A stretch of 17,409 nt of DNA from a virus. Lineage: Duplodnaviria > Heunggongvirae > Uroviricota > Caudoviricetes. This document shows, piece by piece, positions 1-14,677 of this stretch. Under the pieces are notes generated by a model. That model did no database searches. It was not told the origin of the DNA and was given only the letters and a program-made list of their open reading frames with translations. The DNA lies in IMG/VR virus record IMGVR_UViG_2585427784_000004, positions 1 through 17,409 of that record; one strand, written 5' to 3'. Every line of letters begins with the position of its first letter. Position 1 is the stretch's first letter. Made by a program: the position numbers and the translations under genes.

Positions 1-1053
1 TTACGGGGTAATGCCACCCGCTGCCGCCACTTTGTCGCCACTTGGCAGCGTTGCCAGAGGATTGAAACGGAGCGCCGTTTCCAGATGATCCGGTGCCAGA
101 TGTGCGTAACGCATAGTCATTTTTATATCGTGGTGTCCGAGAATTTTTTGTAAGGCCAGAATGTTTCCACCCGACATCATGAAGTGCGCCGCAAACGTAT
201 GGCGCAGAACGTGTGTGAGTTGACCGCGAGGGAGCACGATAGACGTTTTTTCCATCACGGATAAAAATTGAAAATAGCAGTCTGTGAAGAAATTGAACCC
301 ATCAAGCGCCATGATCTCTTCGTAAAGCTCTTTACTGATAGGGATGCTTCTGTTTTTCTTCCCCTTCGTTCTTACAAAGGTAATTCGGTATTTGGTCACC
401 TGTGAACGAGTAAGATTTACGGCTTCTCGCCAGCGTGCGCCTGTGCTTAAGCATATCTTAACTACCAGTGCCAGAATTGGGTCCTGACGTTTGCAATCAG
501 CCAGTAATTCAACAATCTGCTCATGGGTAAGCCATGCCATCTCTTTTTCTGCGATGGTGAATTTTCGCATGTTCTCCAGTGGGTTCGGATACGACCATTC
601 GCCCAGGCGGGATAGTTCGCTAAAAACACTACTTAGATAGCTTTGCTCCAGGTTAATGGTGACCGGGCTTGCTCCTTTCTTCCATTTCTCGCTGAAGTAG
701 ATCTCACCTGTCAGGCGTTTATCTCGATAGTGGGCAAACATTTTAGAGGTTAGATCAGTTGCAAGGGGATTGCCCAGAGCGTCAACCATCAGCAGCAATT
801 TGTCATAGACATGCTGCCCAGCAGTCAGTGATTTACCATGTAGTTTGAACCATAGCTCAACCACGTCTTTCAGTGTTCGACGATCCACTGATTCACCTAG
901 CCAGGGCTTTGCTTCGGTTTCTTCCATCGTGTGACGCTCAAAAGCCAGTGCTTCGCCTTTGGTGGCGAATTGTTTACGCACACGACGCCCACTACGTCCG
1001 GCGGGGTAACATTCGCAAAGCCATTTTCCTGTGGTGAGTTTTCGTACAGCCAT
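1..1053 (-). CDS. int: Tyrosine integrase, P2-Int family (site-specific recombinase)
   Basis: Minus-strand ORF ending with TAA (reverse complement of 1-3). Likely start is ATG (rc of 1051-1053) preceded by GGAGGG. Translation MAVRKLTTGKWLCECYPAGRSGRRVRKQF... with LSTGARWREA and HVLRHTFAAHFMMSGGNILALQKILGHHDIKMTMRYAHL (catalytic R-H-R-Y region) resembles P2 Int as I recall it. The 26 codons upstream of MAVRK in the ORF track are probably not translated. Confidence 0.9.
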   Translation of the reverse strand: MAVRKLTTGKWLCECYPAGRSGRRVRKQFATKGEALAFERHTMEETEAKPWLGESVDRRTLKDVVELWFKLHGKSLTAGQHVYDKLLLMVDALGNPLATDLTSKMFAHYRDKRLTGEIYFSEKWKKGASPVTINLEQSYLSSVFSELSRLGEWSYPNPLENMRKFTIAEKEMAWLTHEQIVELLADCKRQDPILALVVKICLSTGARWREAVNLTRSQVTKYRITFVRTKGKKNRSIPISKELYEEIMALDGFNFFTDCYFQFLSVMEKTSIVLPRGQLTHVLRHTFAAHFMMSGGNILALQKILGHHDIKMTMRYAHLAPDHLETALRFNPLATLPSGDKVAAAGGITP

Positions 1054-1241
1054 AAAAAATGCCCTCCAATAGAGAGCATTTTTACTGTATGTATAACCAG
1101 TGTCAATGTATGAAATCCTGCGACCATACATCTCACTGAAGCCATAATGAAGTAGGCTATTCTTTTTGCTATGTGATCATGTAACTTTTGCGGTTAACCT
1201 GTGGCTCATTTTTATTTTAGGCGCAGATATAAAAGCAAAAG

Positions 1242-1448: not shown

Positions 1449-2018
1449 CTATTTAACATACTTGACTGTTAAACTTATAATTTTACCAATTATTTCAATG
1501 TCTTCTATCTTACATTCAAAGGCTCTGTTTCCACCCTCGACGAAGATTCTTCCACCGGGTAAACGAGTAATGTCACGGATCGTTATTTCGCCATCAATAC
1601 TTATTACCCATTTACCATCACGTATATCATCAAATTCCTTATCACAAATAAATTCAGAATTATTATCTGTGATTACAAAAAGATTCTTGAATGCCGACGG
1701 TAGAAATTCTCTATCGAAAATATAAAAACCGTCTTCACACAAGGCCCCATCAGATAATACATATTTAGCAACTTCCATAGTATTTGTATTACCTGAAGTT
1801 TGCTTTGAACCATGCCCGGTTGTGAGCCAATTAAGCGAGGTGCCTGTTTCAAGGGCGCACTGGATTACCCATTCTGCTGGGAATGAGTCACGCATGTAGC
1901 GTGTGGCGAGTGTACTTTTAGAGATTCCTAAATGATCGCACAACGCCTGTCGAGTCTTGAATCCATAAGCTTCTACCATGCGCTCTATGGCGCCTCGTCC
2001 GCCTTTCTCCAAATTCAT
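1449..2018 (-). CDS. cI: Phage 186-type CI immunity repressor (N-terminal HTH, C-terminal oligomerisation domain)
   Basis: 189 aa from ATG (rc of 2016-2018) with GGAG upstream. Sequence ...AYGFKTRQALCDHLGISKSTLATRYMR...CALETGTSLNWLTTGHG... fits the Phage_CI_repr family pattern. Divergent from the cox/apl-cII operon. Confidence 0.85.
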   Translation of the reverse strand: MNLEKGGRGAIERMVEAYGFKTRQALCDHLGISKSTLATRYMRDSFPAEWVIQCALETGTSLNWLTTGHGSKQTSGNTNTMEVAKYVLSDGALCEDGFYIFDREFLPSAFKNLFVITDNNSEFICDKEFDDIRDGKWVISIDGEITIRDITRLPGGRIFVEGGNRAFECKIEDIEIIGKIISLTVKYVK

Positions 2019-2042
2019 GGTCACTCCAAGTGAACTTTTATC

Positions 2043-2365: not shown

Positions 2366-2397
2366 TTCGATTCTGAAATACATCAGAGGCATTGACC

Positions 2398-2907
2398 ATG
2401 TTTGATTACCAAGTTTCCAAACATCCACATTTTGATGAAGCCTGTCGTGCATTTGCACTGCGCCACAATCTGGTGCAACTGGCAGAACGTGCAGGCATGA
2501 ATGTGCAGATTCTGCGGAACAAGCTGAACCCAGCTCAGCCTCATTTATTAACCGCACCAGAAATCTGGCTGCTTACCGATCTGACTGAAGATTCAACGCT
2601 GGTAGATGGTTTTCTGGCACAGATTCATTGTCTGCCATGTGTACCGATTAATGAGGTGGCAAAAGAGAAACTGCCACATTACGTCATGAGTGCAACCGCA
2701 GAGATCGGGCGTGTTGCTGCAGGTGCGGTGTCTGGCGATGTAAAAACCTGTGCCGGTCGTCGTGATGCTATCAGCAGCATTAACTCTGTAACACGACTGA
2801 TGGCGCTGGCGGCTGTTTCATTGCAGGCCCGTTTACAGGCTAATCCTGCGATGGCGAGTGCAGTTGATACCGTGACTGGCCTCGGTGCTTCATTTGGTTT
2901 GCTGTGA
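2398..2907 (+). CDS. cII: Phage 186-type CII (lysogeny-establishment transcription activator)
   Basis: 169 aa from ATG 2398 (GAGG 9 nt upstream). Sequence [49 protein letters not shown]...[26 protein letters not shown]... matches my recollection of the 186/Fels-2 CII family. Same size as 186 CII. Confidence 0.8.
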
Positions 2908-3948: not shown

Positions 3949-4802
3949 GCACCATCCTGAAATGGGCGGGAAATAAAACTGCCATAATGTCCGAACTAAA
4001 AAAACATCTTCCTGCTGGCCCGCGACTGGTTGAACCTTTCGCGGGTTCCTGTGCTGTGATGATGGAGACGGATTATCCCAGCTATCTGGTTGCGGATATT
4101 AATCCTGATTTAATCAACCTCTATAAAAAGGTTGCCGCTGATTGTGAATCGTTTATATCTCGCGCCAGAGTTTTATTTGAGATCGCAAACAGGGAGGTGG
4201 CTTATTACAACATAAGGCAGGAGTTTAATTACTCAACTGAAATTACTGATTTCATGAAAGCGGTATATTTCCTGTATCTCAATCGTCACGGTTACCGTGG
4301 TTTATGTCGCTATAACAAGAGCGGGCATTTCAACATTCCCTACGGTAATTATAAAAATCCATATTTCCCTGAAAAAGAAATTCGCGCATTTGCAGAAAAG
4401 GCCCAGCGAGCAACGTTTATCTGCGCCAGCTTTGATGAAACGCTGGCGATGTTGAAGGCGGGGGATGTGGTGTATTGCGATCCGCCGTATGACGGTACGT
4501 TTTCCGGCTATCACACTGACGGCTTCACTGAAGATGACCAGTATCACCTGGCATCTGTTCTTGAACATCGGTCATCAGAAGGACATCCGGTCATTGTTTC
4601 TAACAGTGACACATCCCTGATCCGTTCGCTGTATCGCAATTTTACTCACCACTACATCAAGGCAAAACGCAGCATCGGTGTGGCAGCTGGCGAGGGTAAA
4701 TCAGCAACAGAAATCATTGCTGTTTCCGGGCCGCGCTGCTGGGTGGGATTTGATTATTCGCGTGGCGTGGATAGTTCTGCCGTGTACGGAGTACGTGCAT
4801 GA
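3945..4802 (+). CDS. dam: DNA adenine (N6) methyltransferase, Dam-like (GATC class presumed)
   Basis: From ATG 3945 (GGAGG upstream): [11 protein letters not shown]... N-terminal motif, catalytic DPPY ([12 protein letters not shown]), and [20 protein letters not shown]. About 285 aa. The 20-codon upstream extension in the ORF track overlaps the TraR gene and is probably untranslated. Confidence 0.85.
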
Positions 4803-7213
4803 GTCATGCCGATATGAACAACTGCTGCGGCTTTAACGAAGCTGCCGCATCGTTCTCATGGAACAGCTCGAAAAAGGCCATTAACCCTTATCTGGACCCG
4901 GTGGAAGTTGCGCCGGTTTCTACGCTTTCAAACCTGATCACTCTGTACGCTGCCGATAACGAGCAGGAACAGCTGCGCCGTGAGGCGCTGAGTGATCAGG
5001 TCTGGGAGCGTTATTTCTTTAATGAATCCCGTGATCCTGTCCAGCGCGAAATGGAACAGGATAAGCTCATTAGTCGGGCAAAGCTGGCGCATGAGCAGCA
5101 GCGTTTTAATCCGGATATGGTCATTCTGGCGGACGTCAACGCCCAGCCTTCCCATATCAGCAAGCCGCTGATGCAACGTATTGAATACTTCAGCAGCCTG
5201 GGCAGGCCAAAGGCTTATTCCCGCTATTTACGTGAGACGATTAAGCCATGTCTGGAACGACTGGAGCATGTACGCGACAGTCAGCTATCTGCATCTTTTC
5301 GCTTTATGGCAAGCCATGAAGGGCTGGACGGCCTGCTGATCCTGCCTGAAATGAGTCAGGATCAGGTGAAACGCCTGTCCACCCTGGTAGCTGCGCATAT
5401 GAGTATGTGCCTTGATGCCGCTTGTGGCGATTTGTATGCCACCGATGACGTTAAGCCAGAAGAAATCCGCAATACATGGGAAAGGGTGGCAGCGGAAACC
5501 CTGCGTCTGGATGTCATCCCGCCTGCGTTTGAGCAACTCCGTCGGAAAAGAAACCGCCGTAAACCCGTGCCCTATGAACTCATTCCGGGTTCGCTGGCGC
5601 GTATGTTGTGCGCCGACTGGTGGTATCGGAAATTATGGAAGATGCGTTGCGAATGGCGGGAAGAGCAGTTGCGTGCTGTCTGCCTTGTCAGCAAAAAAGC
5701 ATCTCCCTATGTCAGCTATGAAGCCGTGTTGCATAAACGTGAGCAGCGCCGTAAGTCGCTGGAGTTTTTCCGTTCTCATGAACTGGTGAACGAAGACGGC
5801 GACACGCTAGACATGGAGGATGTGGTAAACGCCAGCAGCAGCAACCCTGCGCATCGCCGCAATGAGATGATGGCCTGTGTTAAAGGTCTGGAGCTTATCG
5901 CGGAAATGCGCGGTGACTGCGCCGTTTTCTACACCATCACCTGTCCGTCACGTTTCCATTCCACGCTAAATAACGGCAGGCCCAACCCGACCTGGACAAA
6001 TGCGACGGTAAGACAAAGCAGCGATTATCTGGTCGGTATGTTTGCTGCATTTCGTAAGGCGATGCACAAAGCCGGGTTGCGCTGGTATGGCGTGCGGGTG
6101 GCTGAGCCGCATCACGACGGCACAGTTCACTGGCACCTGTTGTGTTTCATGCGCAAAAAAGACCGCCGCGCCATTACAGCATTGTTGCGTAAGTTTGCTA
6201 TCCGTGAAGACCGCGAGGAGCTGGGCAATAACACGGGGCCGCGCTTTAAGTCTGAGCTGATTAACCCGCGCAAAGGAACGCCGACAAGCTACATAGCGAA
6301 ATACATCAGTAAGAACATTGACGGGCGTGGTCTGGCTGGCGAGATCAGCAAGGAAACGGGTAAATCTCTGCGTGATAACGCTGAATACGTGAATGCCTGG
6401 GCGTCTTTGCATCGTGTTCAGCAATTCCGCTTCTTTGGCATTCCGGGGCGTCAGGCTTACCGTGAACTGCGATTGCTGGCTGGTCAGGCGGTAAGGCAAA
6501 AGGGGGACAAAAAAGCAGGTGCGCCGGTACTGGATAACCCGCGCCTTGATGCCATCCTGGCTGCTGCTGATGCTGGTTGTTTTGCCACCTACATCATGAA
6601 GCAGGGCGGCGTACTGGTTCCCCGTAAATATCACCTCATCAGAACCGCTTATGAAATCAACGAAGAGCCGACCGCCTATGGCGATCACGGCATTCGTATT
6701 TATGGCATCTGGTCACCCATTGCAGAGGGCAAGATCTGCACTCATGCAGTGAAGTGGAAAATGGTTCGTAAAGCCGTTGACGTTCAGGAGGCGGCAGCCG
6801 ACCAGGGCGCTTGCGCCCCTTGGACTCGTGGCAATAACTGTCCCCTTGCTGAAAATTTGAACCAACAAGGGAAAGACAAATCAGCTGATGGGGACTCCAT
6901 AACGGATATTACCCGTATGAATGACAAGGAGTTGCACGATTACCTGCACAGTATGAGCAAAAAAGAGCGCCGGGAACTGGCTGCAAGGTTACGCCAGGTG
7001 AAACCGAAACGGCGTAAAGACTACAAACAGCGAATTACAGACCATCAGCGACAGCAGCTCGTCTATGAACTGAAGTCCAGGGGATTTGATGGCAGCGAGA
7101 AAGAAGTCGATTTGCTCCTTCGCGGCGGCAGTATTCCGTCAGGAGCAGGCCTGCGTATCTTCTATCGGAACCAGCGTCTGAAGGAAGATGATAAGTGGCG
7201 GAACCTGTATTAA
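4799..7213 (+). CDS. Replication initiation endonuclease gpA (rolling-circle HUH nickase, P2/186 A family)
   Basis: 804-aa ORF. HUH-type motif TVHWHLLCF (H-W-H at 6128-6136) and paired catalytic tyrosines YIAKYISK (Tyr codons 6290-6292 and 6302-6304), as in P2 gpA. ATG overlaps the dam stop. Confidence 0.9.
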
Positions 7214-7365: not shown

Positions 7366-7554
7366 ATGCAGGACTATTTTTTGGAGTCTTTGAAGCTCCA
7401 GCGCATTGATTTTTTTCTTAAGCTTGTAGCGGCTAGTGAGTGTAGTGATGAAGAGAAGGGGCTGGCTCTGCAGTGGGTTTCTGAACTGACAGATGAACTC
7501 ATGGCAAAAATCAGAAGCCACGAATACAACCGCTCAATGGATGTCATCAGCTGA
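7366..7554 (+). CDS. Small protein (62 aa) in the SOS operon; possibly the N-terminal part of a Tum-like antirepressor
   Basis: ATG 7366 preceded by AGGAGG (7356-7361). Directly downstream of the LexA box. Ends 10 nt before the DinI-like ORF, whose reading frame is already open from 7493. Confidence 0.5.
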   Translation: MQDYFLESLKLQRIDFFLKLVAASECSDEEKGLALQWVSELTDELMAKIRSHEYNRSMDVIS

Positions 7555-7564
7555 GGTGACTTTT

Positions 7565-7798
7565 ATGCGCATTGAAATAATGATCGATAAAGAGCAGAAG
7601 ATTAGCCAGTCTACCCTGGACGCCCTTGAATCCGAGCTTTACCGCAATCTGCGCCCCCTGTATCCCAAAACGGTAATTCGCATTCGCAAAGGTAGCTCTA
7701 ACGGTGTGGAACTAACCGGACTGCAACTGGATGAAGAAAGAAAACAAGTGATGAAAATTATGCAGAAGGTGTGGGAGGACGACAGCTGGCTGCATTAA
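7565..7798 (+). CDS. DinI-family protein (SOS-regulated RecA modulator / Tum C-terminal-like domain)
   Basis: 77 aa from ATG 7565 (GAGGTG 5 nt upstream). MRIEIMIDKEQKISQSTLDALESELYRNL...RKQVMKIMQKVWEDDSWLH aligns by eye with E. coli DinI (MRIEVTIAK...DALAGELSRR...KQRISEILQETWESADDW). Confidence 0.8.
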   Translation: MRIEIMIDKEQKISQSTLDALESELYRNLRPLYPKTVIRIRKGSSNGVELTGLQLDEERKQVMKIMQKVWEDDSWLH

Positions 7799-7806
7799 GA
7801 AACGTT

Positions 7807-7840
7807 GCCCCCAGGAGGATTCATTCTGATGGGGGCTAGT
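7807..7840 (+). terminator. Weak candidate hairpin after the DinI-like gene
   Basis: GCCCCCA (7807-7813) pairs with TGGGGGC (7830-7836) around a 16-nt loop, followed by TAGTTTGG. The loop is long and the U tract poor. Confidence 0.25.
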
Positions 7841-8204
7841 TTGGGTAACGAGTGAAACGAGGCGTAAGGTGGGCGGCCATTTTGATAAGTGATTGTACGA
7901 TTTGTGTTGTGAGTTCAACGGGTCGATGCAACGCTATCCTTAATCAAGGGCACGTTGCTCATACCCATCGATGCAATGAAAATCCATACTCATGGGGAAG
8001 ACCAGAATGTCCCTGCCTTTTTCATTTTGTTCAGCACATGCACTATGGCCATTGCCTTCCCAAGCTAGCTATCGTAATCACTCAGCGTCAGTAAACTACT
8101 GAAAAATTGTTTTACCTTGTATATCAATAATGCCAAATCATACCCAAAAAATAGAAAATAATTAGATCGACAGGCAGAAGGCAATGTGAATAATCTTAAA
8201 AACC

Positions 8205-8234
8205 TTGACTGCCAGTGAGGTTTGGTTCTATAAA
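8205..8234 (+). promoter_or_regulatory. Candidate sigma70 promoter for darT-darG: TTGACT - 18 nt - TATAAA
   Basis: -35 TTGACT at 8205-8210 and -10 TATAAA at 8229-8234, about 30 nt upstream of the darT RBS AAAGGATGAG (8251-8260). Confidence 0.4.
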
Positions 8235-8265
8235 TAGACTTACGACTTTGAAAGGATGAGTTGAA

Positions 8266-8847
8266 ATGAGCGAAAGGAAAAGAATTGAAGATCAGTATCT
8301 TCTCTATCATTTAACATGTATGGATAATCTACCTAGTATTTTAGACACAGGATTAAGATCTCGTGCATCAGTAAAAGGTGAGTTTGTTGATGTGGCCGAC
8401 GGTGAAATAATAACAGGACGCGAAGCATTAAATTTGCAAACAATGGTTCCTTTTCATTTCTTTACTAAGAATCCATTTGATGGAAGAGTCCTGAAAGATC
8501 ATAAGGAAAAATCATTTTGTATTATTTCGGTTTGTCGGGCATTTGCCAAAGAAAATGGTTGGAAAGTTATCCCTAAACATCCATTATCCACCAGTTCTGT
8601 TATAGACCTCTTAGATTATGAACAAGGAATGGCCCAAATTGACTGGGAGCTTATGAATATAAGGGATTATAAAAATGCAGAATGCAAATCTGTATGTATG
8701 GCTGAGTGTTTATCAAGTGTAACGGTCGAGCCGAAAAATTTCCATTGCATCTTTGTCAAAAATGATAACGAAAAAAAATATGTTGAAAGGTTGATAAAAC
8801 AACAAGGATTAAGTATATTGATAACGATCAACACTTATATGTTCTAA
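8266..8847 (+). CDS. darT: DarT-like DNA ADP-ribosyltransferase toxin (DUF4433-type)
   Basis: 193 aa. N-terminal LLYHLTCMDNLPSILDTGL matches the DarT hallmark (..YH.T...NLP.IL..GL) as I remember it from Thermus DarT, and a C-terminal ...CMAECLSSV... Glu-containing motif sits where the catalytic Glu would be. Followed 4 nt later by a macrodomain gene. AT-rich codon usage. Confidence 0.75.
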   Translation: MSERKRIEDQYLLYHLTCMDNLPSILDTGLRSRASVKGEFVDVADGEIITGREALNLQTMVPFHFFTKNPFDGRVLKDHKEKSFCIISVCRAFAKENGWKVIPKHPLSTSSVIDLLDYEQGMAQIDWELMNIRDYKNAECKSVCMAECLSSVTVEPKNFHCIFVKNDNEKKYVERLIKQQGLSILITINTYMF

Positions 8848-8851
8848 TTCT

Positions 8852-9823
8852 ATGATTAAGTATGCAAGCGGAAATCTTCTAAACTCTACATCGCAAGCTC
8901 TTGTGAATGCTGTAAACTGCCAAGGAGTCATGGGAAAGGGTATTGCTTTGGCTTTTAAAGAAACTTTTCCCTATAATTTCGAAGTTTATAAGAGAGCATG
9001 CGCCACTGGTACAATGAAAATTGGACAGGTTTTAATTGTAGAGGAAAAGGGAAAAATAATTGTAAACTTTCCCACTAAAGATAGTTGGAGAAAAAAATCA
9101 ACATATGATTTTATCTCGCAAGGCCTTGAATCTTTAGCAAAAATTATAGACGAAAAAAAAATTACATCAATATCAATACCACCTTTAGGCTGTGGTAATG
9201 GGGGCCTCGATTGGAATAAGGTTGAGGCTCTTATTTTAAAAACTTTTCAAAATTTAGATAATGTTGATGTGGTAATTTATCCGCCTGCAACTAACAATCA
9301 ACTTTCAAAAAATAAAAATGTTATTAATGCTAAGCATCTTTTGGTTCACTACGCCTATGGAAAATTAAAAGTTAAGCAAAAATATTCCCTTTATACAGTT
9401 TTTTATATTTGCGAATGTATTGAGAAAGCAAATCTTTTTTTATTCGATTTTAAACATGGTCGGCCATACTCTTCTGAGTTAGAAAATATTATGAAGGATA
9501 TAGCAAACCTTAAAGTTGAGTTGCAAGGAGATTTTGATGCTTTTATTGAAGATTATATTAATACTCATCAATCCAAAGAGTTACAAACCGAGTTTGGTAA
9601 ACTAATCTCAACTTTAAATCCAAGTATAAGTTTGCTCAATGCTCTTAAAAATAAGATTGATTATACAGATAGCGTACATGTGATTACGAGAATTGCTAAA
9701 GAAAAAGATCATGGCTTGCATATTGACAATTTCAAAGAATATGAAAATATTGTGCAGCATTTAATTAAAAATGGATTGGTAATCGAAGATATTTTTAACG
9801 AACTAAAAATAAAGGGAAGTTAG
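8852..9823 (+). CDS. darG: DarG-like antitoxin: N-terminal macrodomain (ADP-ribosyl hydrolase) plus C-terminal domain
   Basis: 323 aa. The first ~150 aa carry macrodomain signatures (NAVNCQGVMGKGIALAF..., ...ISIPPLGCGNGGLDWNKV...). The C-terminal ~170 aa is helical and K/E-rich, consistent with a DarT-binding domain. Gene order toxin then antitoxin. Confidence 0.8.
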   Translation: MIKYASGNLLNSTSQALVNAVNCQGVMGKGIALAFKETFPYNFEVYKRACATGTMKIGQVLIVEEKGKIIVNFPTKDSWRKKSTYDFISQGLESLAKIIDEKKITSISIPPLGCGNGGLDWNKVEALILKTFQNLDNVDVVIYPPATNNQLSKNKNVINAKHLLVHYAYGKLKVKQKYSLYTVFYICECIEKANLFLFDFKHGRPYSSELENIMKDIANLKVELQGDFDAFIEDYINTHQSKELQTEFGKLISTLNPSISLLNALKNKIDYTDSVHVITRIAKEKDHGLHIDNFKEYENIVQHLIKNGLVIEDIFNELKIKGS

Positions 9824-10375
9824 TAGCGCTATTTTCAATTTTTTTGCTGAAATTGCGCATGCACACTCTCACGCATTATAGATGCGGCGTTAATCCCGCC
9901 AGGAGTGTTGTTTAATAAATTGAACTATTTCTGCATTGAAGGATCAACTTACGCATTCGCTGACAACGCAGGCACTCTCCTGGCTAAGCAGAAATTCAGA
10001 GTAACCAACTGGCACTTTTACAACAATTTTATTATCAGTTGCGGCTCCATGACTTTCTGGTGGGATAACAAAGCAATTAAGGCGTGGTATTGTAAGTATC
10101 CCGCATAATCATGCTAGTAACATTTGTCCCCCATGTAACCTAATTAAGGCAACTTCCGCTCTTCGCTCACAGTGAACCTCCATGTTTGTAAACCCGTATA
10201 TTTCGTTTTTTAAGTGGTCATTCAGATACGGATTTTCACTTCTCTTGGCTGTGCATGACTATGCTGCATGAAATTGCATGATCGTTTGAGGATCGTTTTT
10301 GCTGAGGCCCCCCAGAACTGGCGGGCTTTCGCTTATGTCATGCAGGTGCATGAAAATCACTGCATAAAGCGGGCA

Positions 10376-10394
10376 GGCGTGGCGGGGATACGAG
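10376..10394. other. cos-like motif (possible remnant of the cohesive-end site)
   Basis: GGCGTGGCGGGGA (10376-10388) is identical to the first 13 nt of the 186 cohesive end as I recall it (GGCGTGGCGGGGAAAGCAT; P2 GGCGAGGCGGGGAAAGCAC), then diverges. Upstream are five TGCATGA-like repeats (10252-10370) that could be terminase-recognition elements. Rests on recalled sequences only. Confidence 0.25.
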
Positions 10395-10477
10395 CGCGCG
10401 CTGGAGGGATAAATGGAATTGAAAATGTACCTTCTTAGAGATAACCTTCGCTAAAACTTTATTACTAAGGAGTGATA

Positions 10478-12220
10478 ATGAGTACCTGGAACCAAGCCTA
10501 TTCTGCAAGAGAAGATTTGAAATCGTATGGTGATAATGGACTGGCTTTGTTTGCGTTAGCATTACATTTCAGAATTGATGACATTGATAGTGTCGCAGCA
10601 GAGTCCATTACCGATGGACATGACGATAAGAAATGTGACCTTGTGTATATTAATGAAGAAGAAGAATTTGCTGTACTTGCTCAATGCTATTTCTCAAGCA
10701 AAGATAGACAGGAAGCTCCAGCAAATAAAGCGAGTGATCTTAATATTGCTTTAGCATGGCTTCTGCAAAGAGATTTGCATGATGTACCCGATAGAATAAA
10801 ATCTTCTGCTCAACAGATACGGACATCAATCAAACAAGGGAAAATTAAAACTCTGTACGTTTGGTATGTTCATAACTTACCATCTTCAACAAATGTGGCT
10901 CAAGAGCTAATTACGGTTCAGCAGACAGCAACAACTATTTTAAAACATGATTTTGAAGATGCTAAAATACAAGTGCATGCAATGGAAGTAGGCACTGAAA
11001 AGTTGACGGAATGGTATAGTGAATCACTATCACCAATACTGGTTGATGAGATTTTCAATATTAAAGTCAGTGATGGTGGCTATGAAATAAAAGGAGATAA
11101 TTGGAATGCATTCTGTACTACCATTCAGGGAAGAGATTTAGCTAGAGCGTACAAAAAGCATAAATTAAAAATATTTTCAGCAAATGTTAGAGACTACCTT
11201 GGATCAAGGTCATCTGATTCAAATATCAATAATGGTATCCGTAACAGTGCGGAAAATTCAGCATCAGAATTTTGGGCATACAATAATGGCGTAACTGTTT
11301 TGGTTCATGAATATAAATTCAATGAAGCATCAAAGAATCTTGAAATCAGAGGGATGTCAATAGTTAATGGAGCACAGACAACAGGTGCTTTAGGAACGCT
11401 GCCACGATTACCTCCAGAATCAGTTAAAGTCCAAGCTAGATTTATAAAAGTCAAAGATGCGGATGCTGATCTAATTCAGAATATAATTCAGTATAATAAC
11501 AGTCAGAATAAAGTTGAAGCATCTGATTTCAGAAGCACAGACAAAATTCAAAAACGACTTAAAAATGAATTTGCTTCTATTCCTGATGCTGAATATGATG
11601 GAGGAAGACGAGGAGGTGCTGAAAGTGTCATTCGTCGAAAAACTAATCTACTGCCTTCTTATACTGTTGGTCAAGCTTTGATGAGTTTCCATGGAGAGCC
11701 GACGGTAGCTTATAATCAGCGATCTGCAATTTGGACTAATGACTCTCATTATTCTAAGATTTTTAATGACAGTACAAAAGCTTCACATATTGTTTGTGCG
11801 TATTCTCTCATGCGGTGTATTGAGAACAAGAAAATAGCTTTGGCAAAGAAAGATACTCTTTCAAAAAATGATAGCGCTCAATTGGGATATCTCAGGCATC
11901 GTGGTTCAATACCTTTATTGTGCTCGGCTATTGCCGAATGTTTGGAAAACTTTTTGGGCCGTCCCGTTCCTAATTTATTTAGAGTTTCGTTTGGAAGTAC
12001 GGTTTCTCCTTCTCAGGCTGAAAGTATTTGGGAGCCAATTGTAGATGTGTGTCTGGCTTTAAGTAATCAGTTGCTGCCTGCACTGGTTGAAGGAGGGTTG
12101 AAAAGTCCTACAAAAGTTAAAGATTGTATATCAAATTTTTCACAGCTTATTACTGCAACGGCCCAAATGAACCAGCCTGTATATGAGGCATTTGAGAAAA
12201 AAATCAAATCCGCATTCTAA
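10478..12220 (+). CDS. 580-aa orphan cargo protein; candidate single-gene abortive-infection/defence protein, tentatively AIPR-like
   Basis: ATG 10478 with TAAGGAG upstream. Long, clean ORF with AT-rich codon usage. Internal motifs FWAYNNGVTVLVHEY and MSIVNGAQTTGALG resemble what I recall of AIPR / DGQHR-type Abi proteins; the N-terminal segment is acidic (DGHDDKKCDLVYINEEEEFAVLAQ). Followed by a strong terminator. Family assignment is unverified. Confidence 0.8.
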   Translation: MSTWNQAYSAREDLKSYGDNGLALFALALHFRIDDIDSVAAESITDGHDDKKCDLVYINEEEEFAVLAQCYFSSKDRQEAPANKASDLNIALAWLLQRDLHDVPDRIKSSAQQIRTSIKQGKIKTLYVWYVHNLPSSTNVAQELITVQQTATTILKHDFEDAKIQVHAMEVGTEKLTEWYSESLSPILVDEIFNIKVSDGGYEIKGDNWNAFCTTIQGRDLARAYKKHKLKIFSANVRDYLGSRSSDSNINNGIRNSAENSASEFWAYNNGVTVLVHEYKFNEASKNLEIRGMSIVNGAQTTGALGTLPRLPPESVKVQARFIKVKDADADLIQNIIQYNNSQNKVEASDFRSTDKIQKRLKNEFASIPDAEYDGGRRGGAESVIRRKTNLLPSYTVGQALMSFHGEPTVAYNQRSAIWTNDSHYSKIFNDSTKASHIVCAYSLMRCIENKKIALAKKDTLSKNDSAQLGYLRHRGSIPLLCSAIAECLENFLGRPVPNLFRVSFGSTVSPSQAESIWEPIVDVCLALSNQLLPALVEGGLKSPTKVKDCISNFSQLITATAQMNQPVYEAFEKKIKSAF

Positions 12221-12224
12221 CTAA

Positions 12225-12256
12225 AAGAAGGCCTTGTAAGAGGCCTTCTTGATATT
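12225..12256. terminator. Rho-independent terminator, probably bidirectional, between the 580-aa gene and the convergent portal fragment
   Basis: Perfect 10-bp stem AAGAAGGCCT (12225-12234) / AGGCCTTCTT (12241-12250), 6-nt loop, then GATATTTTA. An A run lies on the opposite side. Confidence 0.6.
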
Positions 12257-12281
12257 TTACTGATCAGCGAACATATTGTCG

Positions 12282-12662
12282 TCATAATGAGTATGTCGCA
12301 AAACGGATAATTTCATCTTTCAACCATCTATTTAGTTCCTGTAGCCGTTTCTGTAGCGGCATCAATTCGTTACGAACAAAAACGCAACTGGCTTTCTCTA
12401 CATCCCCAAACCCTCCAACATTATTAGGCATAATCCCCATCATCTGAGGCGGCACACGGTGTGCCGCCATCATGTCATCGCGGCTGACATTTTTGATATT
12501 CAGAAACTCATCCTTCGCCGCGACTTCTGATATCTGGCGGTATTGCCCGTCTGCGCACAGCAGGCCGGGGGCCAGATTGCTGTGGGACAGGTCGATGTCC
12601 ACCTTATCGGCTTTGTTGCGCCCACGGTTGAACAGCGCACCGGACCAGAACGGATACGACGC
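12282..12662 (-). pseudogene. C-terminal fragment (~125 codons) of the phage portal gene (gpQ-like); N-terminal two thirds deleted
   Basis: Minus-strand frame open through 12282-12746. Protein-like C-terminal sequence ...RVPPQMMGIMPNNVGGFGDVEKASCVFVRNELMPLQKRLQELNRWLKDEIIRFATYSL. The first 28 codons of the tracked ORF are antisense to gpU and not credible. Orientation and position next to cos match P2 Q. Portal identity is from memory. Confidence 0.5.
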
Positions 12663-13148
12663 ATGATGATGGTGCTGGGATTGTACGTGTTTATGCTGCG
12701 CACCGTGCCGTATCAGGAGCTGCAGTATCAACGCAGCTGGCGACATGCGGCAAACAGCCGGGTAAACCGACGTCCGTCCACGCAGTTTCTGGGACCGGAC
12801 AACGACATGCTGACGCTTTCCGGTGTTCTTATGCCGGAGATAACAGGTGGCAGGCTGTCGTTGCTGGCACTGGAGCAGATGGCAGAACAGGGGAAAGCAT
12901 GGCCCCTGATTGAAGGCAGCGGCACGATTTATGGCATGTATGTGATTGAGGGACTGAATCAGACTAAAACGGAGTTTTTCCGCGACGGTATGCCGCGCCG
13001 GATTGAGTTCACCCTGTCGCTCAAAAGGGTGGATGAATCATTGTCCGATATGTTCGGTGATCTCAGTGCGCAACTGAATAATCTGCAGGACACGGCAACG
13101 TCTGCCTTAAGCGATATCAGTAAAACGGTGGGAGGGCTGCTGTCGTGA
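12663..13148 (+). CDS. Tail protein gpU (P2 U family)
   Basis: About 160 aa from the ATG triplet at 12663-12671. Sequence MVLGLYVFMLRTVPYQ...RSWRHAANSRVNRRPSTQFLGPDNDMLTLSGVLMPEITGG...EGSGTIYGMYVIEG... Stop overlaps the gpD start (GTGA). The 40 upstream codons in the ORF track are read-through over the portal fragment. Confidence 0.8.
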   Translation: MMMVLGLYVFMLRTVPYQELQYQRSWRHAANSRVNRRPSTQFLGPDNDMLTLSGVLMPEITGGRLSLLALEQMAEQGKAWPLIEGSGTIYGMYVIEGLNQTKTEFFRDGMPRRIEFTLSLKRVDESLSDMFGDLSAQLNNLQDTATSALSDISKTVGGLLS

Positions 13149-14245
13149 ATTTCAGCTCTGAACTGCTTAACAAAGGCAACAAAACTCCCGCATTCAGCAT
13201 CAGTATTGAGGGCAGGGATATCACCACTGTGCTGGATAACCGCCTGATGAGTCTGACGCTGACGGACAATCGGGGCTTTGAAGCGGACCAGCTTGATCTG
13301 GAGCTGGACGACGCCGATGGAAAAATAGCGCTGCCGCGCCGTGGTGCGGTCATTACGCTGGCGCTGGGCTGGAAGGGGCAGCCGCTTTTCCCGAAAGGGG
13401 CATTCACGGTGGACGAGATTGAACACACTGGCGCACCGGACCGCCTGACTATCCGGGCGCGAAGTGCTGATTTTCGGGAAACGCTGAATCCCCGCCGTGA
13501 AAAGTCGTGGCACAAGACCACTGTCGGGGAAGTGGTGAAGGAAATAGCTGTGCGGCACAAACTGAAGATGGCACTGGGTAAAGACCTGTCAGATAAACCC
13601 GTGGAACATATAGACCAGACCAATGAGAGTGACGGCAGTTTTCTGATGCGGCTGGCGCGCCAGTACGGTGCTATTGCGTCGGTGAAAAATGGCAATCTGT
13701 TATTCATCCGGCAGGGACAGGGTAAAAGCGCCAGCGGTAAACCACTACCGGTGATCACTATCACACGTAAGGACGGCGACAGTCACCGCTTTACCCTGGC
13801 AGATCGCGGAGCCTATACGGGCGTAATTGCCAGTTGGTTGCATACCCGCGAACCCGCGAAGAAAGAAAGCACCACGGTGAAGCGTAAGCGCAGGACTAAG
13901 AAGCAGAAGAAAGAGCCGGAAGCGAAGCAGGGCGATTACCTGGTGGGTACGGATGAAAACGTGCTGGTACTTAATCGCACCTATGCCAACCGGAGCAACG
14001 CCGAACGGGCGGCAAAAATGCAGTGGGAACGCCTGCAACGCGGCGTTGCGTCATTCTCGCTACAACTGGCGGAAGGGCGGGCAGATCTCTACACGGAAAT
14101 GCCAGTGAAAGTCAGTGGCTTTAAACAGCTGATAGATGATGCGGAATGGACCATTACGACTCTGACACATACCGTCAGCCCGGATAACGGTTTTACGACC
14201 AGTCTGGAGCTTGAAGTGAGGATTGATGATTTCGAAATGGAATGA
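13145..14245 (+). CDS. Tail protein gpD (P2 late gene D family)
   Basis: 366-aa ORF directly after U and before ogr, the P2/186 order F-E-T-U-D-ogr. Carries a basic insert KKESTTVKRKRRTKKQKKEPEAKQ. Start is GTG at 13145, overlapping the U stop. Confidence 0.85.
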   Translation: MNFSSELLNKGNKTPAFSISIEGRDITTVLDNRLMSLTLTDNRGFEADQLDLELDDADGKIALPRRGAVITLALGWKGQPLFPKGAFTVDEIEHTGAPDRLTIRARSADFRETLNPRREKSWHKTTVGEVVKEIAVRHKLKMALGKDLSDKPVEHIDQTNESDGSFLMRLARQYGAIASVKNGNLLFIRQGQGKSASGKPLPVITITRKDGDSHRFTLADRGAYTGVIASWLHTREPAKKESTTVKRKRRTKKQKKEPEAKQGDYLVGTDENVLVLNRTYANRSNAERAAKMQWERLQRGVASFSLQLAEGRADLYTEMPVKVSGFKQLIDDAEWTITTLTHTVSPDNGFTTSLELEVRIDDFEME

Positions 14246-14270
14246 TTCTTCGCAATGGAGAACTTTTAAG

Positions 14271-14298
14271 TTTGCAAAATGGAATAATGCGGTATCAT
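14271..14298 (+). promoter_or_regulatory. Candidate ogr promoter: TTTGCA - 16 nt - TATCAT
   Basis: -35-like TTTGCA at 14271-14276 and -10-like TATCAT at 14293-14298, upstream of the ogr RBS GGGGAG (14320-14325). Confidence 0.3.
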
Positions 14299-14335
14299 TA
14301 TTGTGAATTTAGCAAAAATGGGGAGAACTCGAAAA

Positions 14336-14554
14336 ATGATGATTTGCCCACTGTGTGGAAGTGCCGCCCATACTCGCAGCAGTTTTCAGGTATCTTCATT
14401 GACCAAAGAGCGTTACAACCAGTGCCAGAACATTAACTGCAGCCATACTTTTGTTACCCATGAAACTTTTGTTCGTTCGATTGCAACGCCAAAAGAGTCA
14501 AATCCGGTTCAGCCGCATCCAATGAAATCAGGACAGGTAGCGCTCTCTCTTTGA
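14336..14554 (+). CDS. ogr: Ogr/Delta-type zinc-finger late-gene transcription activator
   Basis: 72 aa from ATG 14336: MMICPLCGSAAHTRSS...ERYNQCQNINCSHTF... matches P2 Ogr (MFHCPLCQHAAHARTS...ERYHQCQNVNCSATF) including the C2C2 finger and length. The upstream GTG at 14303 in the ORF track is unlikely. Confidence 0.85.
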   Translation: MMICPLCGSAAHTRSSFQVSSLTKERYNQCQNINCSHTFVTHETFVRSIATPKESNPVQPHPMKSGQVALSL

Positions 14555-14634
14555 CGCTGCCGCCATTTTGTCGCCATCGTTAAAAAACAGTGCTTCTAAC
14601 ATCATGATCTTAAACAGCTTAAATTTCAGGCAAC

Positions 14635-14677
14635 AAAAAACCCATCAACCTTGAACCGAAATGGCGGGGTTGATGGG
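14635..14677 (-). terminator. Rho-independent terminator downstream of ybjL
   Basis: 10-bp perfect inverted repeat CCCATCAACC (14641-14650) / GGTTGATGGG (14668-14677) with a 17-nt loop. On the minus strand it is followed by TTTTTTGTTG (plus-strand A run 14635-14640). Confidence 0.5.

Follow-up and report, generated by a model that had tools for sequence, protein, structure and literature searches.

How does the C-terminal end of a portal gene come to lie beside tail gene U, when the two genes are far apart in intact phages of the P2 family? This question is raised by positions 12282-12700 of the viral record IMGVR_UViG_2585427784_000004, of which a stretch of 17,409 nucleotides, here called the window, was analysed. 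The window is a segment of the Escherichia coli chromosome with ybjL, ybjM and grxA at its right end, as recognized from its open reading frames (ORFs) and from annotated relatives, and the element within it is a defective 186-type (P2-family) prophage of ~14.7 kb that is integrated between rcdA and ybjL. An earlier sequence-only reading had described the locus as the product of a single deletion, in which a portal remnant of ~125 codons directly abuts gpU. We think instead, with a probability of about 0.9, that 12282-12700 bears the scar left when illegitimate recombination twice deleted DNA from a 186-type prophage at the rcdA/ybjL site of E. coli.

Two deletions and a terminase island

The breakpoints were placed with the intact Klebsiella phage ST11-OXA245phi3.1 (L009) as reference, using BLAST segments and a three-way comparison of the junctions with both parental sequences. 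Collinearity with intact members of the P2/186 family holds apart from internal deletions, and the comparison resolves into three segments. Window 10253-12532 corresponds to reference 7523-9802, window 12531-12656 to reference 11348-11473 with 100% identity, and window 12652-14554 to reference 31423-33326, leaving gaps of 1547 bp and ~19.95 kb. The total loss relative to the intact relative is ~21.5 kb.

The first segment ends within portal gene Q, of which a C-terminal fragment with its stop codon is retained on the minus strand (12282-12532). That this fragment comes from a portal gene, as had been proposed, is well supported. It is 98.6% identical to the reference up to reference base 9802, and positions 12221-12532 show 97% DNA identity to the 3' ends of portal genes of Klebsiella P2-like phages, with the match ending at 12532. 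In a BLASTP comparison of the whole minus-strand ORF with P2 gpQ, similarity was found for ORF residues 65-154 only, which correspond to gpQ 249-339 (57% identity, E 6e-34). The Pfam family Phage_portal (PF04860) is matched with E 2.8e-9, and the 37 bits remain just under the gathering score of 39.1 bits because only a fragment is left. The portal gene is thus not full length, and the ~125 codons first assigned to it shrink to ~83 of 341.

What follows upstream of the portal codons is a 126-bp internal island of the terminase large-subunit gene P (12531-12656, minus strand). As could be shown by protein comparison, it holds codons 291-332 and stands in frame with the portal piece. With 100% identity, its sequence matches the terminase large-subunit gene of E. 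coli prophages, hundreds in number, and also that of Klebsiella phages. Reduced to codons 291-332, the terminase large subunit lacks full ATPase and nuclease domains. Junction 1, between portal and terminase, lies at 12531-12532, where a 2-bp microhomology TA marks the deletion of 1547 bp. Junction 2, between the terminase and the end of tape-measure gene T, lies at 12652-12656, where a 5-bp microhomology GGATA marks the deletion of ~19.95 kb. Both junctions are defined by the overlap of the BLAST segments and by the three-way comparison, and junction 2 in addition by alignment. The sequence to its right (12652-12666, plus strand) comprises the last 11 nt of T together with the T stop codon, which overlaps the start of U. 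Indeed, in phage 4LV2017 gene T ends 4 nt into U, and the match in the window starts 11 nt before U.

The portal remnant therefore does not abut gpU, but is separated from it by the terminase island and the last 11 nt of T, and two junctions stand for two deletions where one had been assumed. That the minus-strand ORF is continuous between the U region and the portal fragment does speak for a single deletion joining portal and gpU. As 12531-12656 is 100% terminase and not portal, however, and as similarity to gpQ starts only at ORF residue 65, we reject a single deletion with near certainty. The right partner had been named correctly, since tail gene U is intact (12663-13148, plus strand), matches Phage_P2_GpU (PF06995) over the full profile length with E 2e-44, and encodes a protein that BLASTP finds to be 48% identical to P2 gpU.

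In intact relatives, portal and U are ~21 kb apart, in line with the large separation assumed in the sequence-only reading. The missing intervals hold all scaffold, capsid, small-terminase, head-completion, lysis, tail-completion, baseplate, fibre, sheath, tube and tape-measure genes of the reference. Of the particle genes, O, N, M, L, X, lysis, R, S, V, W, J, I, H, G, FI, FII, E and T are absent, and Q and P persist only as fragments. The earlier description of a large-deletion P2/186-type remnant that has lost essentially all capsid, lysis and tail genes but kept int, the repressor switch, gene A, D, ogr and defence cargo is borne out by this comparison. Because capsid, tail and lysis genes are missing, the element alone would be unable to build particles, as far as gene content tells.

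Across deletion 1, both the terminase piece and the portal piece are still read in their native frames, and the ORF continues antisense to U as far as an ATG at 12746. This creates a chimeric ORF of 154 aa (12282-12746, minus strand, from the ORF list), in which 30 aa antisense to U are followed by 42 aa of terminase and 82 aa of portal. It is this in-frame fusion with its antisense run-on that looked like a ~125-codon portal-like gene abutting U, and the mutually overlapping frames that had been noticed are real, as the minus-strand ORF runs antisense over the U start. Gene callers annotate the chimera as a portal-like protein, and in public sequencing runs five contigs encode the same protein, one of them from the Logan assemblies. 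A pattern scan found no promoter-like site near the 5' end of the ORF around 12746, and the P-gene promoter region was removed by the deletion. Most likely, the chimeric ORF is an accidental by-product of the deletions.

Some details at the junctions may be added. At junction 1 (12530-12534), the portal break falls between Leu and Ser (...PL/SEVAAKDEF), and an unrelated fusion of terminase 1-186 to portal, P0199, apparently has the same portal codon boundary, as judged at the protein level only. The end of gene T reads GGGGGATACGAC in intact relatives (window 12646-12662). Of this, 10 nt (GGGGATACGA) recur in the right-hand portion of the cohesive end GGCGTGGCGGGGATACGAG (10385-10394), which may be coincidence.

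The scar is best explained as follows. Deletion 1 (1547 bp) joined portal codon ~259 to terminase codon 332 via the shared TA, and deletion 2 (~19.95 kb) fused terminase codon 291 to the final 11 nt of T via the shared GGATA. The N-terminal three quarters of the portal, nearly all of the terminase large subunit, and all other virion and lysis genes up to T were lost in this way. Left over are the lysogeny and replication module, cos, DarTG, the AIPR/AbiU-like gene, U, D and ogr. The joining was probably RecA-independent and mediated by microhomology. A benefit of its defence and immunity genes to the host may explain why the remnant has persisted, or its decay may simply be incomplete. The anatomy of the scar with its breakpoints and microhomologies follows directly from the comparisons, and no evidence contradicts it. 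Some points nevertheless weigh against the history of two illegitimate deletions. One complex event instead of two deletions may have produced both junctions, slippage or end joining would have to be deduced from microhomologies of 2-5 bp only, and junction 2 lies on a recurrent breakpoint, so that it perhaps represents no random event.

Neither the phage records nor any of 5,426 complete E. coli genomes contain a junction-spanning match, and the junction sequence has no match in the IMG/VR viral contig collection either. The absence of the exact junction from the complete genomes would fit an artefact of assembly, either a collapse of the contig or a chimera, for which there is otherwise no specific support. 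The same scar occurs, however, in an independent Logan assembly, which covers both junctions and differs by 2 mismatches in 12,585 bp (99.98%), and analogous remnants are present in finished genomes. With independent public contigs carrying the scar at 2 differences in 12.6 kb, we consider an artefact to be ruled out for all practical purposes. All copies of the scar that were found have the same chromosomal site and the same gene context.

Recurrent breaks in the terminase gene

The terminase break of junction 2 is found again, within 0-4 nt, in at least 12 remnants that have varied partners and belong to 186-type, P2-type, Erwinia and metagenomic lineages. On the coding strand, it directly precedes the Tyr codon of the motif YPFWSG (P2 coordinate 2117; window 12645-12656). 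Three other E. coli remnants share it to the base, with ...CCAGAACGGATA directly before the break and V', FII' or an internal position of T as right partner. In a further remnant, Z1323CEC0018, which was obtained with a 600-bp query evenly sampled down the ranking, the break is 2 nt off and joined to D. Across the remnants the break follows the pattern ...CCAGAACGG(A/G)TA, while the partners differ. Besides the window, the loci broken at or near this site include L005 (9115), L006 (7115), L007 (7115), L017, L018, L019, L021, L022 and L024.

P2-type cases were found by searching proteins with the C-terminal portion of the terminase that is retained, after which the contigs of terminases starting at the same codon were retrieved. 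Their partners are an internal position of D, an internal position of N and a second site in D, all joined at P2 coordinate 2117. In Erwinia rhapontici the break is 4 nt away and joined to the lysC region, and one divergent metagenomic lineage has a break at the same terminase site. The opposite direction is represented as well, as an N-terminal query recovered terminase 1-291 fused to portal in P0152, P0187 and P0231. Internal deletions at the site occur in P0067, P0188 and P0193, and in P0171 a single nt is missing at exactly this point. For partners whose intact sequence is known, the joins show microhomologies of 2-5 nt around a central TA or TAC. Among IMG/VR contigs, two of these kinds of junction are represented too. 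When one-genome-per-species contigs of bacteria and archaea and the JGI metagenomes were scanned with exact patterns for additional types of junction, only intact synonymous alleles were returned.

Common descent does not account for the shared break. On either side of the break, the E. coli remnants diverge from one another by 3-7% in their flanks, which makes a recent common descent of these remnants unlikely, and the P2-type, Erwinia and metagenomic cases are far too divergent. As an alternative to random microhomology, junction 2 could result from a sequence-specific process at a fixed terminase site 5' of the YPFWSG Tyr codon. In support of such a process, the same break is seen with different partners, in diverged lineages, in both directions and in internal deletions. 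Furthermore, when 80-bp queries were compared with the complete E. coli genomes, 15 records broke off within the site-centred query, as opposed to 0 and 0, plus one borderline case, for control queries placed 150 bp to either side. These counts are, however, records and not events collapsed by phylogeny, and the protein survey was seeded with a query starting at the site, so that its sample is biased. Also, no enzyme or motif has been identified, and breakpoints cluster elsewhere in this gene too, though less sharply. Intact GGATAC alleles are known, moreover, and if these are ancestral, the 186-type breaks spread over ~3 nt with ordinary microhomologies of 3-7 bp. On balance, we regard a sequence-specific origin of junction 2 as possible, but as the less probable explanation.

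Candidate causes of such breaks would be a nick or double-strand break made by an enzyme of the host, the phage or a competing element, or an arrest of replication, in each case followed by joining at a nearby microhomology. Several specific mechanisms were considered and rejected. Integrase acting at a secondary attachment site does not fit, as the att core AACAAAAAACCCAT is unlike the terminase site, and the same holds for nicking by the gene A protein at a pseudo-origin, as both the P2 ori nick region and its 186-type homologue are unlike it. The likeness to cos is limited to GGATA, which speaks against cleavage of a pseudo-cos by terminase. A hairpin or palindrome is not indicated, as DNA folding gave z ~0 on both strands for 186-type and P2 sequences. 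An invariant C after GGATA, which might have been taken as the signature of an enzyme, is weakened by the intact GGATAC alleles. To our knowledge, there is no convincing agreement with restriction sites (type II, IIS or III), with the targets of IS5, IS10 or IS630, with the gyrase consensus, the type I-E protospacer-adjacent motif or the DnaG primer start, and none is claimed here. A search of the literature for a known deletion hot spot in the terminase gene found nothing.

More generally, P2-family terminase genes might hold a base-precise hot spot of breakage and rejoining at the TA of the YPFWSG Tyr codon. It would reflect an activity with sequence specificity that has so far gone unrecognised, for example a nuclease or strand transferase of the host or of a rival element, or a programmed replication arrest. 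We think that this is rather unlikely. If the recurrence holds true in a phylogeny-aware survey, the decay of P2-family prophages would not be random. A hot spot, if true, would imply a specific activity that disables a packaging gene, which bears on the 'grounding' of prophages and on the origin of defence islands. Such an activity could repeatedly disable prophages at the packaging gene and leave behind cos-bearing defence islands like the element described here. The recurrent terminase breakpoint is a more useful outcome of this analysis than the scar itself.

The softer endpoint clusters in the terminase lie near residues 343 and 388, and many of the residue-343 cases look like frameshifts. 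The looser groups start at SWEVWTDF (~residue 388) and at NLFDLDQL (residue 344), and the proteins concerned are P0034, P0035, P0041, P0050 and P0080, and P0014 and P0015. Endpoints of internal deletions recur at terminase Tyr470 and Tyr498.

A similarity between gene A and the hot spot was also observed. The gene A motif (A/T)CCAGAACGGATA, located ~95 nt from the homologue of the ori nick region, has 12-13 nt of identity with the hot spot in some 186-type alleles (window 6897-6909; L005 2291, L006 2784, L007 1325, L024 976). The sequence ...AACGGATA is present in gene A of 5/5 hot-spot remnants examined, and in the window the match is limited to these 8 nt next to the breakpoint. The intact Klebsiella phage and the three other remnants read ...GGACA instead, and P2 is without such a repeat. 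The identity is probably a coincidence.

Decayed prophage or satellite

Prophages at rcdA/ybjL have lost their late genes repeatedly. At least seven other remnants with different deletions were found there in complete E. coli genomes, which makes decay by internal, microhomology-associated deletion common at this site. In the APEC O78 type (L003) portal' is joined to T', a junction shared by at least 17 complete genomes. WP2-S18 has O joined to a D fragment, ECCWS199 has P' joined to FII' and then E' to D', and VE-V11-M has P' joined to T'. TW14425 combines P' joined to V' with the fibre region joined to U, in E94 (L008) S-DUF6216 is joined to T', and in Z1323CEC0018 P' is joined to D'. All share the site, the early region, cos and ogr with the window and have lost late genes by internal deletion. 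In five of them, the break in the terminase gene lies no more than 2 nt from that of junction 2. Each has its own partner breakpoints and cargo, however, and only the window has the additional portal/terminase deletion and the joining to the T end and U. The tape-measure breaks of APEC O78 (L003 12431) and E94 (L008 10733) lie ~8 nt apart, ~140 codons from the end of the gene, and their left partners differ.

Defective P2-like prophages with conserved defence genes have already been described, with their domestication left open (PMC13586616), and so has a defence hotspot between gene A and the portal gene (PMC9122126, PMC13586616). The prophages with defence-hotspot genes of these studies (Rousset et al. 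2022, PMC9122126; NAR 2026, PMC13586616) share with the window the P2-family backbone and the loss of mobility and structural functions. The portions of the two papers that were available describe neither breakpoints at base resolution nor a recurrent terminase break, whereas the scar in the window is resolved to two deletions and an island. The scar is thus genuine and represents a known and common kind of prophage decay, so that the general interpretation given in the sequence-only reading is supported but not new. It is one more decayed P2-like prophage that is now a fixed carrier of DarTG and the AIPR defence gene, and it supports the published view that defence genes gain stability in bacterial chromosomes through defective P2-like elements.

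The closest intact counterparts are coliphage 186 and the 186-type Klebsiella phages ST11-OXA245phi3.1 and 4LV2017, which have the same gene order, a 186-type CI, CII, Fil, a DinI-like gene and the same cos. Identity to ST11-OXA245phi3.1 is 95% in the early region, 98.6% in the AIPR gene and portal end, and ~94% in U-D-ogr. In contrast to these phages, the element is without the 21.5 kb of morphogenesis and lysis genes, has DarTG as cargo and is integrated between rcdA and ybjL.

An element without structural genes that retains a packaging site also calls satellites to mind, and cos and its flanks are identical to those of intact relatives, so that a packaging site appears to be preserved. Such a helper-dependent satellite would be induced by the SOS response, excise, replicate and be packaged through cos by a P2/186-type phage that is co-resident or infecting, perhaps as a dimer of ~29 kb, and would thereby spread DarTG and AIPR. 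The set of retained functions is suggestive in this respect, as it includes int, the ORF in Apl position, CI and CII, the DinI-like gene, gene A with the ori region, cos with its conserved flanks, and ogr, and near-identical copies occur in several sequencing runs. The same features are, however, equally expected of a recently decayed prophage. Every copy was found at one chromosomal site and in one gene context, the junction is not seen in the viral contig collection or in phage records, and 14.7 kb is less than half of a P2-size genome. Sid-, Psu-, delta- or epsilon-like hijacking genes were not seen in the ORF and Pfam scans, and beyond ogr, the Pfam scans of the ORFs contain no families dedicated to the exploitation of a helper, be it by redirecting capsid size, derepressing the helper or transactivating it. 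Instead, every gene of the element is either the counterpart of a gene in helper-type phages or defence cargo. P4-like satellites resemble the element in their small size (11.6 kb as compared to ~14.7 kb), int, own replication, P2-family cos, defence cargo, an Ogr/Delta-type activator and the lack of capsid genes. The backbone in the window is, however, of the helper-phage type and is without the alpha primase and sid, psu, delta and epsilon, and there is no evidence of packaging. We therefore think that a satellite lifestyle is improbable, and that the element is best regarded as a decayed prophage. As cos, int, the replication module and the DinI-like gene are kept, mobilisation of this remnant by a helper would still be conceivable.

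The retained genes and sites are as follows. The integrase gene (1-1131, minus strand) is a complete ORF with its stop codon at the window edge, matches Int_N (E 3.4e-32) and Phage_integrase (E 1.1e-21) in Pfam, and has homologues annotated as 'phage integrase' in E. coli relatives. The attR core AACAAAAAACCCAT (14632-14645, plus strand) is the 14-bp direct repeat that flanks the prophage in strain WP2-S18. This relative has the core at attL as well, and the attL copy of the element itself falls outside the window, ~90 nt to the left of its start. The repressor switch comprises a 186-type CI repressor (1449-2024, minus strand; Phage_CI_repr E 2.8e-33, Phage_CI_C E 2.7e-27) and the CII regulator (2392-2907, plus strand; Phage_CP76 E 4.1e-42). 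A small ORF in the Apl/Cox position just upstream of CII (2144-2365) has no Pfam match. According to Pfam, the prophage contains CI, CII, Fil, DUF5347, DUF2732 and TraR genes, and a Dam methylase gene is also present along with replication gene A. The latter, which encodes a rolling-circle initiator (4799-7213, plus strand; Phage_GPA E 3.7e-127), includes the homologue of the P2 ori nick region at ~6806-6843, as found by comparison with P2 29850-29940. It is followed by an SOS-type gene (7493-7798, plus strand; DinI E 1.2e-22) that is annotated as 'DinI-like' in relatives. To the right of the scar, tail gene D is intact (13145-14245, plus strand; Phage_GPD E 4.4e-26), and the late-gene activator ogr is found at 14303-14554 (plus strand; Ogr_Delta E 6.7e-22).

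Between the AIPR gene and the portal stop codon, a pattern scan found a terminator-like hairpin (12225-12250, plus strand) with an 11-pair stem and a subsequent T run. It occupies the position of P2 tQ, which in the P2 annotation adjoins the Q stop codon.

Variable defence cargo lies on both sides of cos, with DarG on one side and the AIPR gene on the other. DarT (8266-8847, plus strand) is identified by PADLOC (E 1.3e-36) and by Pfam DarT, and DarG (8852-9823, plus strand) by PADLOC (E 2.8e-80) and Pfam Macro. In the ~430 bp from DarG to the conserved cos block (9824-10250), the sole ORF has 67 aa (9905-10108) and is without a PADLOC match. The AIPR-family (AbiU-like) gene between cos and the portal remnant (10472-12220, plus strand; Pfam AIPR E 2.1e-34, PADLOC AbiU E 1e-34) is 99.7-99.8% identical to the copies in WP2-S18 and in Klebsiella phage ST11-OXA245phi3.1. 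The cos block itself (10253-10401) matches 7523-7671 of that phage. Within it, the 19-nt cohesive-end sequence GGCGTGGCGGGGATACGAG (10376-10394, plus strand) with its conserved flanks is the same in intact and defective relatives and was aligned with P2 cos. After the cohesive end, the sequences diverge directly behind a conserved 'cgcgcgc'.

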